A stretch of DNA of 64,000 nt from Escherichia coli (GCF_003334815.1 NZ_QOWO01000001.1), one strand, 5' to 3'; positions 27,216 to 33,634 are shown, numbered from the stretch's first letter. The notes: generated by a model not told the origin, from the sequence alone. Program-made: numbers and translations.

Positions 27216-28823
27216 TCAATGTGCCTTGATATACAACTCTTTGCTGTAGACATAATCCTGGGGATTATGCAGCGGAAAACCGCCAACGTAGGGTTTAAGC
27301 AGTTTGATTAACGGCTGATAGTAGATAGGAATCAGCGGTGCCTGTTGGTTGATGATCACTTCTGCCTGCTGATACAACGCATTACGCTTTGTCGCATCAG
27401 TGATCTGCGTGGCCTGGTTTAGTAAGGCGTCATACTGCGCATTTTTCCAGTGACCGACGTTTTCTTCACTATCGCTTTTGAGCGTGTTCAGGAAGCTGGA
27501 AGCATCATTGTACGTCGCATCCCACGACTGCCGAGACAGCATGAAATCACCGGCTCGTCGGGCATCAAGATAGGTTTTCCACTCCATTGTGCGCAGCGTC
27601 ACCTGTGCACCCAGCCATTTTTTCCATTCGGAAGACAACGCTATCGCGGTCTTTTCATGCAGATCGTACTTGTTGTAGAACAGCTCAAAGCGTAGCGGAT
27701 GAGAGGCGTCGTATCCCGCCTGTTTCAGCAAGGCTTTTGCCATCGCGACGCGCTCACTCATTGGCTTTTGCAGTTCATCGAACGTCGTCGCGCTAAAGCC
27801 TTTTACCTCTGGCGGCGTCAGCGTGGTTGCGGGCGTTCTCAACCCCAGTACCTTTTGCGCAATAAGCTGTCGATCAACCGTAAGATATAGCGCCCGACGC
27901 ACTCGCACATCGTTAAATGGCGGTTTCTCAAGGTTGAAGTTGTAATATTCGCTGTTCAGACGCGGAATAATTCGTAGCTCGCCAGGCAGTGATTTTTCAA
28001 TGGCGGGAATTTGCTGCGCCGGAACCCAGGTGAGATCGACCTCTCCCGCGCGATAGCGGTTATAGCCGGTGACCGAATTATCTAGCGCCAGATACTCAAC
28101 CTGTTGCAATACTGTATGTTGCGCATCGCGGTACTTTGGATTTTTGCGTGCAGTAATCTTTTCGTTAACTACCCACTGATCAAGCACAAAGGCACCGTTG
28201 TAAACCATGTTCTCTGGCTTACTCCAGCTATCGCCATGTTTAGCGATGACATGATGAGGAACCGGGAACAGCGTCGGCCAGGCGAGCATCGTCGTGAACC
28301 AAGGAACCGGCTGCTCAAGCGTAACTTCAAGAGTACGATCATCCGTCGCTTTGACACCCAGCGATGTAACATCTGCTTTACCCGCAACAATAGCTGCGGC
28401 ATTGTTAATGTGCGCCTGTGCCAGATAGCCAGCAAAAGGGCTTGCCGTTTTCGGGTCAACCGCGCGCTGCCAGCCGAGGACAAAATCCTCTGCCGTCAGA
28501 GGCTGACCGTCGGACCACTGCAAACCGCTACGCAGATGGAAAATATAGCGCTTGCCGCCGTCCAGTATCTCCCAGCGTTCAGCCTGAGCGGGCTGCACCT
28601 GGCCTTCACCGTCCATCCATACCAGACCTTCAAACAGATCCAGCACAATCTGCGCGGCAGTATTCTCCTCCACCTTTTGCGGGTCGAGCGTACCTGGGTC
28701 GCTATGATTGTTGTAACGAAAGACTTGTTGCGGGGCGAGCGGTGTGTTGGCGGGAACGTCAGCAGCGTAGAGAGGAGCCGCACTTACCAGGCTGACCAGC
28801 CATAATAAATTTCGCGTATACAT
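27216..28823 (-). CDS. ygiS: Periplasmic solute-binding protein (family 5, oligopeptide-binding-like) YgiS
   Basis: Start set at MYTRNLLWLVSLVSAAPLYA (535 aa, signal peptide), not the longer ORF to 28886. Confidence 0.88.
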   Translation of the reverse strand: MYTRNLLWLVSLVSAAPLYAADVPANTPLAPQQVFRYNNHSDPGTLDPQKVEENTAAQIVLDLFEGLVWMDGEGQVQPAQAERWEILDGGKRYIFHLRSGLQWSDGQPLTAEDFVLGWQRAVDPKTASPFAGYLAQAHINNAAAIVAGKADVTSLGVKATDDRTLEVTLEQPVPWFTTMLAWPTLFPVPHHVIAKHGDSWSKPENMVYNGAFVLDQWVVNEKITARKNPKYRDAQHTVLQQVEYLALDNSVTGYNRYRAGEVDLTWVPAQQIPAIEKSLPGELRIIPRLNSEYYNFNLEKPPFNDVRVRRALYLTVDRQLIAQKVLGLRTPATTLTPPEVKGFSATTFDELQKPMSERVAMAKALLKQAGYDASHPLRFELFYNKYDLHEKTAIALSSEWKKWLGAQVTLRTMEWKTYLDARRAGDFMLSRQSWDATYNDASSFLNTLKSDSEENVGHWKNAQYDALLNQATQITDATKRNALYQQAEVIINQQAPLIPIYYQPLIKLLKPYVGGFPLHNPQDYVYSKELYIKAH

Positions 28824-28955
28824 GGTATTCCTTACCGGAGAAATTATAAGCCCAACAACAATACGCCTGTGGCATTGTTCGCTCAAACTTATCGCGAGTG
28901 ATTTGGCTCACACTCCGGTAAAGAAAAAAGCGAGTTGCCCCCGCTTTTCCATTAA

Positions 28956-29351
28956 TTAACGGATTTCATTCAATAGTTCTGGATGCTTATCCAGAACACG
29001 TAAAAGTTTGATTGTGGAAGGATGAGGTTGGGCATTGCCTTTTTCGTAACGCGAAAACGCATTTACACCTCCCCCAAAAATTTCGCTTGCCTCTTTTTGG
29101 GTAAGAGAGAGCTTTTTTCGAACCTTCACTATAAATTCAGGTGCCACTGTTTCGGCATTCACCGAAGCCCGAAATGCCTTTACTTGCGCCATGAAAGCAT
29201 CTGACTCTTCTTTATTCATGATGCTCTCTTCGCAATGGACACAATATAAACCGTGGATACCTTTCAATACTGTTTTTCGTCCACGGAAGGTGTATGGAAT
29301 ATCTTTAATGCCAGAAACCATTTCTCCCTGGTGGCAAACCGGACATTTCAT
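28956..29351 (-). CDS. mqsA: Antitoxin MqsA (zinc-ribbon plus HTH-XRE)
   Basis: 131 aa; N-terminal CxxC...CxxC zinc motif (CPVCHQ...CVHCEE); downstream of and adjacent to mqsR. Confidence 0.95.
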   Translation of the reverse strand: MKCPVCHQGEMVSGIKDIPYTFRGRKTVLKGIHGLYCVHCEESIMNKEESDAFMAQVKAFRASVNAETVAPEFIVKVRKKLSLTQKEASEIFGGGVNAFSRYEKGNAQPHPSTIKLLRVLDKHPELLNEIR

Positions 29352-29352
29352 A

Positions 29353-29649
29353 TTACTTCTCCTTAAACGAGACGATCAGTACGTCATGAATTACCGTAAT
29401 TTTAAGATAAACCTGGCCTGTAACAAGCCTGGGTCTGTAAACATCCTGCCAGATAGTATGATCAGAGTAGGTGGTCATGCTTTTATAAAAGTCGCTCTCT
29501 GATAATCCAATGATAACATTACACATACCATCAAAATCCAAACCTAACTCATCTGCATTTAACAGGGCACTACGTGTTGTACGAACTTGCCCGGCATTGA
29601 CAAGTTTTTTAACCTGACTCAAACGTGTATGTGGTGTGCGTTTTTCCAT
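29353..29649 (-). CDS. mqsR: mRNA interferase toxin MqsR
   Basis: 98 aa, MEKRTPHTRLSQVKKLVNAGQVRTTRS...; toxin gene precedes the antitoxin. Confidence 0.95.
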   Translation of the reverse strand: MEKRTPHTRLSQVKKLVNAGQVRTTRSALLNADELGLDFDGMCNVIIGLSESDFYKSMTTYSDHTIWQDVYRPRLVTGQVYLKITVIHDVLIVSFKEK

Positions 29650-29678
29650 AACCCCCGCCTCCCTGTTACTTTAGTTAT

Positions 29679-29722
29679 AACCTAAAAGGTTAATTACAGC
29701 AATGAAAAAGCACCTAAAAGGT
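29679..29722 (-). promoter_or_regulatory. mqsRA operator: two ACCT-N3-AGGT palindromes
   Basis: taacctaaaaggttaa (29678-29693) and cacctaaaaggttag (29711-29725), 30-75 bp upstream of mqsR; matches the known MqsA-binding palindrome. Confidence 0.75.
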
Positions 29723-29853
29723 TAGTTAGATGTACGGAGATAGTGACCACACAAAACGTATTCTTTAAGGAAAGTGATTGACCATATAAGAAAGTGGCGC
29801 ATTAGTAGCGCCAGTTTGAAGCAGGAATTTATAAGGGAAGCTGGAGTCAGGCA

Positions 29854-30336: not shown

Positions 30337-30388
30337 TTTGCCTCCCTGCGAAATTATTCCCGGGAACGCGTCCCGGGAGCGGTAACAA

Positions 30389-33316: not shown

Positions 33317-33634
33317 ATATCAGTACGCTCATAAAAATCCATTTATAATTATCAACATGACACGTTGATACTTTCATCTTTTACTTATTCAAAGCCATAT
33401 TTTCAATCCCCAAAAAAACCGAACCAAACGTGTAAATTATTCCGGTGCGAGTAAGAATTATGAGGAATGGCTATCAGTATTGTCATTTTCAGAAAATATT
33501 TATCCTGCATCGGTGAGTCAGAGTAAGATCAGACTTTTGCTAAATTCGCAAAAGACTTTGCACATTTTGCTAATTTCACCGTACCGCTCTGTGACGTACT
33601 ATAGTCGGCAAACGTCTCACCTTGAGGTTAAAAA

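Follow-up and report, generated by a model that had tools for sequence, protein, structure and literature searches.

MqsR and MqsA of Escherichia coli K-12 form one of the best characterised toxin-antitoxin (TA) systems. MqsR has the RelE fold, cleaves RNA mainly at GCU and stops growth (PMC3920265, PMC7167474, PMC2791442). Its need for the ribosome was disputed in 2009, and its toxicity is relieved by alanine substitution at K56, Q68, Y81 or K96 (PMC2791442). MqsA holds MqsR via a zinc-containing N-terminal domain and DNA via a dimeric C-terminal helix-turn-helix (HTH) (PMC3920265, PMC2791442). The zinc ligands are C3, C6, C37 and C40, which the 2009 structure paper called perfectly conserved (PMC2791442). 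MqsR is not a co-repressor; on binding, it removes MqsA from the operator (PMC3920265, PMC7167474). The operator motif is 5'-AACCT N3 AGGTT in two copies, which the K-12 coordinates resolve into one 15-bp and one 11-bp palindrome with core starts 32 bp apart, and in electrophoretic mobility shift assays (EMSA) MqsA shifts a fragment with both palindromes to three bands (PMC4894380). Structures exist for the toxin-antitoxin complex and for MqsA on this very operator.

The transcription of mqsRA has also been dissected. The operon promoter is weak, giving 111 AU over a background of 104 AU, and rises to 369 AU on deletion of mqsRA (Fraikin et al., 2019; PMC6918082). The effect of the deletion is complemented in trans, and it is MqsA that represses. 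Two further promoters, constitutive and not autoregulated, lie in the mqsR open reading frame (ORF) and drive mqsA; the second internal transcription start is 111 nt upstream of the pA1 start (PMC6918082). What is the module for? The physiological role is contested in the literature, between a global regulator of stress and biofilm and a module with no detectable role (PMC6918082). It has also been published that TA systems, mqsRA included, are unevenly distributed across E. coli (PMC7167474, its refs 32 and 33).

Several other TA systems resemble mqsRA in part. The tripartite MqsR/MqsA/MqsC system of E. coli C496_10 uses the same toxin and antitoxin families and is also toxin-first, but there a third gene encodes a SecB-like chaperone that the antitoxin needs to neutralise the toxin. 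A function against phage T2 has been demonstrated for that system, and the same work notes that no defence role is documented for bipartite MqsRA (PMC9519451, PMC10783111). The "reverse-order" type II systems HigBA and HicAB share the toxin-first arrangement and an antitoxin that binds DNA by a C-terminal HTH-XRE domain, and in some systems of this type the toxin, like MqsR, drives its antitoxin off the operator (PMC7167474). Unlike them, MqsR belongs to a Pfam family of its own (MqsR_toxin) and MqsA has a structured zinc-binding N-terminal domain. The likeness to RelBE lies in the toxin. MqsR folds like RelE and YoeB, and the residues needed for its toxicity show their best superposition with those of RelE (PMC2791442). 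However, the gene order of RelBE is the opposite, its antitoxin is unrelated to the fully structured MqsA, and MqsR has been reported to cut free RNA at GCU and not only RNA on the ribosome (PMC3920265, PMC2791442).

The locus described here lies in a 64-kb window of E. coli DNA, the window being the whole stretch that was analysed. Taken whole, the evidence is best explained if it is the chromosomal type II operon mqsRA of K-12, and of this there is very little doubt. Reading of ORFs on both strands places mqsR (29353-29649, 98 aa, the RelE-fold endoribonuclease toxin) and mqsA (28956-29351, 131 aa, the antitoxin and repressor, its zinc domain N-terminal and its HTH-XRE domain C-terminal) on the minus strand. 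The single base at 29352 separates the mqsR TAA from the mqsA ATG, and an AAGGAG ribosome-binding site sits within the last mqsR codons, just before that ATG. An earlier note on this DNA had described a 98-aa toxin ahead of a 131-aa antitoxin with a 1-nt gap, beside ygiV, ygiW and qseBC. Both descriptions are borne out: the ORFs run 29649 to 29353 and 29351 to 28956, and the neighbours are ygiS, ygiV, ygiW and qseB. That note gave no strand. RefSeq names the same DNA mqsR and mqsA in thousands of genomes, with ygiS, ygiV, ygiW and qseBC as flanks. In K-12 (ygiU-ygiT, b3022-b3021) the protein sequences, the operator sequences and spacing and the flanking ygiS, ygiV, ygiW and qseBC are all the same as in the window. 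No difference was seen, so the window holds that locus or an identical allele.

The proteins bear this out. MqsR is 100% identical over its 98 aa to PDB 3HI2 chain B, "motility quorum-sensing regulator MqsR", and matches Pfam MqsR_toxin (PF15723) at 6.1e-35, residues 5-97 aligning with positions 1-95 of the 95 in the model; NCBIfam has no matching model for it. Its toxicity has been shown by experiment on the identical protein (PMC2791442). K56, Q68, Y81 and K96 are all present, and none of them varies across the 13 aligned sequences, 12 of which are homologues; this disposes of the possibility, left open earlier, that this MqsR lacks conserved catalytic residues. MqsA is 100% identical to PDB 2KZ8 and 3GN5/3O9X, "MqsA (YgiT/b3021)". 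It matches Pfam MqsA_antitoxin (PF15731) over its full length at 8e-56, HTH_3 at 8e-4, NCBIfam TIGR03830 (CxxCG_CxxCG_HTH; type II TA antitoxin MqsA family) with 146.7 bits (cut-off 61.8), and TIGR03831 (YgiT finger) with 43.7 bits; the HTH region also has a weak match to HigA-2 (E = 4.6e-4). C3, C6, C37 and C40 are all present, with the HTH-XRE domain following the zinc domain. N97 and R101 are present too, and Brown and colleagues are said to have identified these in 2011 as the HTH residues that contact bases. Neutralisation of MqsR by MqsA has been shown for identical proteins (PMC2791442, PMC6918082).

The tripartite arrangement is not found here. No SecB-like chaperone gene lies downstream of mqsA; the next gene is ygiS, which encodes an ABC-transporter substrate-binding protein (NF007287, 1292.9 bits) and is separated from mqsA by a terminator. 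The C-terminal extension associated with chaperone dependence is absent from MqsA, whose 131 aa align from first residue to last with the crystallised protein, which needs no chaperone. MqsC is not to be equated with YgiS, being a SecB-like chaperone that belongs to another strain (PMC9519451, PMC10783111). In short, the analysis found nothing against the molecular identity. The mqsRA locus is real and has been rightly delimited and read, and as a locus it is already known in detail and holds nothing new. One further idea was that the module's own mRNA avoids GCU. From base composition, 3.5 sites are expected in mqsR and 4.5 in mqsA, and the genes contain one and three, respectively. This reading was dropped because the two genes hold too few sites.

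Upstream of mqsR, ACCTAAAAGGT occurs on the plus strand at 29680-29690 and again at 29712-29722, reading ACCT-TTT-AGGT in the orientation of the genes. Measured from the mqsR ATG at 29649, the palindromes lie 31-41 and 63-73 nt upstream, in keeping with the earlier placement of two palindromes at 30-75 bp. The proximal MqsA operator is a perfect 15-bp palindrome, TAACCT-TTT-AGGTTA (TAACCTTTTAGGTTA, 29678-29692), around the core at 29680-29690. The distal operator is the 11-bp palindrome ACCT-TTT-AGGT at 29712-29722. Both lie within one 100-nt upstream region and form the core of a 17-nt direct repeat, the copies of which are identical at 16 of 17 bases and are 32 bp apart. The operator lengths and the 32-bp spacing match those published for K-12. 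The proposal that these are the sites bound by MqsA therefore agrees with the published promoter in motif, copy number and K-12 positions (PMC4894380).

Natural variation in operator number exists. In E. coli N18-04097 a 32-bp tandem duplication (around window positions 29674-29728) places three ACCT-TTT-AGGT palindromes before an otherwise identical mqsRA. The same three-operator junction is found in three of 5,426 complete genomes, namely N18-04097, SCU-104 and SW070917. Elsewhere in the window, relaxing the palindrome spacer to 2-4 nt yields one extra site only, at 33619, which is the chance level. This is an ACCT-N2-AGGT palindrome, ACCTTGAGGT, at 33619-33628. A 193-aa plus-strand ORF begins shortly after it, at 33635, so that the palindrome lies 7-16 nt upstream; we presume from the K-12 gene order that this ORF is mdaB.

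Plasmid-borne homologues provide a comparison at greater distance. The set consisted of 12 from Gamma-, Beta- and Alphaproteobacteria in which MqsR is 37-67% identical to that of E. coli; no true plasmid homologue exceeds 68% identity to E. coli MqsR. All 12 are toxin-first, and the two genes overlap or are no more than 2 nt apart. Nine of them carry an ACCW-N3-WGGT palindrome in the 100 nt that precede the toxin gene, compared with 0.06 expected from shuffling, and two more have palindromes with one mismatch. In the remaining homologue, from Pectobacterium, another ORF ends 4 nt upstream. The homologues from Caballeronia, Pseudomonas, Sulfuriferula, Mycetohabitans and Rhizobium have a half-site, then TTGCCA or TTGACA, then the palindrome and then a TAATAT-like hexamer. 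A separate observation concerns the antitoxins on the Methylocystis, Sinorhizobium and Sulfitobacter plasmids. The first two lack all four zinc cysteines and the third lacks two of them. All three have K in place of R at position 101, and their upstream palindromes read CACC-W-N3-W-GGTG as against TAACCT-N3-AGGTTA. Perhaps the changes in MqsA residues and in the palindromes represent co-variation of protein and operator.

Could the palindromes upstream of mqsR be chance matches and not operators at all? There are only two ACCTNNNAGGT matches within the 64-kb window, against 0.39 expected from shuffling, and two or more matches did turn up in six of 100 whole-window shuffles. However, the two sites are no further than 75 nt from the start codon and are part of the 17-nt direct repeat, their positions agree with the published footprints (PMC4894380), and related palindromes stand upstream in nine of the 12 distant homologues. 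A chance origin is vanishingly improbable on this evidence and is effectively refuted already.

If the palindromes are operators, how do they relate to the promoter? A relaxed sigma-70 scan (8 of 12 matches) suggests an operon promoter, pRA, at 29674-29702 on the minus strand, with TTGCTG as the -35 hexamer (29702-29697), a 17-nt spacer and TATAAC as the -10 hexamer (29679-29674). These exact hexamers are predicted from the sequence; an early paper reportedly put the palindromes in the 5' UTR. As predicted, the spacer contains the proximal palindrome, which overlaps the first two bases of the -10 hexamer. The proximal operator would then be within the promoter spacer and abut the -10 hexamer, a placement proposed because the homologues share the order hexamer, palindrome, hexamer; the -35/palindrome/-10 geometry of E. 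coli pRA is also seen in homologues L005, L007 and L009-L011. The distal operator would stand 10 nt ahead of the -35 hexamer. With the operators some three helical turns apart, both MqsA dimers would be expected on the same face of the helix.

Together with what others have shown by experiment on identical proteins (toxicity, neutralisation, operator binding, autorepression and the internal promoters), this arrangement suggests how the operon is controlled. The C-terminal HTH domains of the MqsA dimer bind both ACCT-TTT-AGGT palindromes and mqsRA is repressed. The repression would work by promoter occlusion: with the proximal palindrome inside the promoter spacer, MqsA bound there would block RNA polymerase. 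MqsR that binds MqsA displaces it from the DNA. Free MqsR arrests growth by cleaving RNA, mainly at GCU, and the zinc domain of MqsA binds and neutralises it. Since the toxin gene comes first, excess antitoxin is supplied from the two constitutive promoters within mqsR and by way of the strong AAGGAG ribosome-binding site. One of those promoters is probably pA1, at 29399-29426 on the minus strand inside mqsR (29426 to 29399 as transcribed), where TTGTTA, 16 nt and TAAAAT form the sole match of a consensus scan in the region. From the reported distance of 111 nt between the starts, pA2 should fall in a zone at 29482-29541 on the minus strand, where the relaxed sigma-70 scan offers two candidate hexamer pairs, TTGGAT-17-TGTTAT (29541-29513) and TTGGAT-17-TATAAA (29510-29482).

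The genes are bracketed by hairpins. After mqsA comes an intrinsic terminator (28924-28950, minus strand) with an 11-bp stem, a 5-nt loop and a U-run (fold energy -12.8 kcal/mol, z = -3.0), and its stem is at the edge of the accessory segment described below. At the other end, between the ygiV stop and the operators and still inside that segment, is a G+C-rich, terminator-like hairpin, TGGCGC...GCGCCA (29795-29813, minus strand; -10.9 kcal/mol, z = -4.6), and 0 of 200 shuffles folded as well. The hairpin may insulate the cassette from read-through out of ygiV. Genomes with an empty site are without this hairpin, and in them ygiS comes 108 bp after ygiV. This suggests that the cassette altered the way in which ygiV and ygiS are linked transcriptionally.

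The accessory segment is 927 bp long (28925-29851, minus strand) and comprises the hairpin, operators, promoter, mqsR, mqsA and terminator. Alignment of occupied with empty sites indicates that it is present or absent as a unit. It begins 3 nt past the ygiV stop codon and ends in the mqsA terminator stem, and empty sites have AAGAA or GGGAA where it would be. Its GC content is 41.1%, compared with 52-53% for ygiS, ygiV and ygiW. The earlier note had called the module accessory and not universal in E. coli, and this proved correct. A 770-bp query found the module in 2,298 of 5,426 complete E. coli genomes (42.4%), always at 99% identity or more and always on the chromosome. A query across the empty junction found a clean empty site in 3,111 (57.3%), including O157:H7, O104:H4 and extra-intestinal strains. 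Occupied and empty sites between them cover 5,409 genomes, and the flanks of the module are present in all 5,426. The flanks of carriers are at least 99.5% identical to the window; those of most empty-site genomes are 96-98.7% identical, and the range is 96-99% in the O157:H7, O104:H4 and extra-intestinal strains.

How did the segment get there? No direct or inverted repeats were found at its flanks, and because of this neither transposition nor a site-specific insertion mechanism is indicated. The simplest reading of the aligned sequences is one insertion into a lineage that includes K-12, with the cassette being inserted rather than lost. A vehicle was also sought. A tblastn search of the GenBank phage collection gave no match to the E. 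coli allele. A plasmid vehicle for this allele was rejected: the only two PLSDB records with MqsR at 99% identity or more, NZ_CP141089.1 and NZ_MG591698.1, are pieces of chromosome filed as E. coli plasmids. One is 4.9 Mb and the other 354 kb, and the 354-kb record has parC, ftsP, plsC and qseBC around mqsRA. Taken at face value, these records would wrongly suggest a plasmid-borne K-12 allele.

Once present, the module is occasionally broken. IS1 insertions disrupt mqsR (around 29353-29649) in some genomes, such as 30EVA1 and O25:H16 F5505-C1. About 14 of the 2,298 carriers fall below 80% module coverage, which fits occasional decay of the toxin gene. A different change affects the neighbouring gene. 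In 1,354 of 5,426 genomes (25%), all without mqsRA, a 236-bp single-copy sequence stands in place of almost the entire ygiS gene; in E. coli O104:H4 C227-11 it takes the place of window positions 27240-28800 or thereabouts. Of ygiS itself, these genomes retain approximately 20 nt at the start and 45 nt at the end. The filler has no Rfam match at the gathering threshold, and being single-copy it was rejected as a repeat element.

It remains to consider why the cassette is kept. One proposal is that mqsRA serves mainly in global regulation, with MqsA as a pleiotropic repressor acting through palindromes at rpoS, csgD and cspD, MqsR shaping the transcriptome, and effects on stress, biofilm and, via the neighbouring ygiS, bile-salt tolerance. 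EMSA and overexpression experiments in which MqsA binds a similar palindrome at csgD and represses curli are in its favour (PMC4894380), as are reviews that cite MqsA binding at rpoS, cspD, mcbR and spy (PMC3920265) and the position of ygiS, with 43 GCU sites, directly downstream. However, a study that used reporters in single copy together with a deletion mutant and mild overexpression saw no effect of MqsA on csgD, rpoS or cspD, found none of the three promoters to be stress-regulated and detected no biofilm, oxidative or deoxycholate phenotype (PMC6918082). The window itself offers no further N3 palindrome, and its single N2 site is at chance level. A core regulatory role is also argued against because the module is missing from 58% of E. 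coli genomes, and ygiS as well from 25%. Global regulation thus appears quite unlikely as the main role. Another proposal is that the cassette is kept for phage defence, with infection freeing MqsR and RNA cleavage aborting or stalling the infection. The tripartite homologue of E. coli C496_10 strongly protects against T2 (PMC9519451, PMC10783111), homologues of MqsR and MqsA form PHROG families, and the cassette itself is an accessory, low-GC element that hardly varies among its carriers. Yet there is no chaperone gene here, the downstream gene ygiS encoding a substrate-binding protein, and K-12, which carries this very module, was the phage-sensitive host in the T2 experiments (PMC10783111). 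PADLOC v2 has no MqsR model either; a scan with it gave no MqsR match and, for MqsA, only weak HTH-level matches to RmrA (2.3e-5). Phage defence is therefore rather unlikely as the reason.

The cassette might instead be a selfish, horizontally gained addiction module that brings no host benefit, its loss being counter-selected and its inheritance vertical in one lineage. It is a discrete, low-GC insertion of 927 bp with its own regulatory signals, and its presence follows flank similarity. Homologues are common on plasmids, and 30 of the 73 plasmids with homologues are conjugative. No phenotype was detected in PMC6918082, and IS1 occasionally causes mqsR to decay. On the other hand, a null hypothesis of this kind is difficult to prove, and the small number of disrupted copies, about 14 in 2,298, could equally reflect selection for function. 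A selfish module is a serious possibility, if one that stops slightly short of being probable. What if there is a real benefit after all? The insulated cassette would then have arrived between ygiV and ygiS in a single horizontal transfer and have been kept nearly invariant in 42% of E. coli for that benefit, which for the bipartite module may be, for example, defence against some phage or stabilisation of a chromosomal region. We consider this a rather unlikely scenario.

The identification itself matters little for so well characterised a system, and its value lies in the by-products. These are exact population numbers (42.4% occupied, 57.3% empty, 25% also without ygiS) and exact boundaries of the indel, within which operators, promoter and terminator travel with the genes. 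To them can be added a promoter-operator geometry kept in distant plasmid homologues and rare natural variants with three operators. They could help to settle the disputed cellular role of mqsRA.

Some minor features of the window deserve mention. The mechanical ORF for ygiS (27216-28886, minus strand) has a TTG start and 556 aa; RefSeq begins the gene at an ATG at 28823 (535 aa), and residue 22 is where the alignment to the NCBIfam model begins. Outside the module, E. coli SCPM-O-B-7615 has 13 extra bp in the ygiW-ygiV intergenic region (around 30337-30388). An Rfam scan of the whole window, with all of the following elements above the gathering score, found an FMN riboswitch (45675-45823, minus strand), the sRNA ES173 (17626-17689, plus strand) and three naRNA4 elements of the REP type (729-805, 11775-11845 and 62964-63034). 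It also found two SIB RNAs, which are antitoxins of type I toxin-antitoxin pairs, at 54520-54669 and 54895-55044 on the minus strand.
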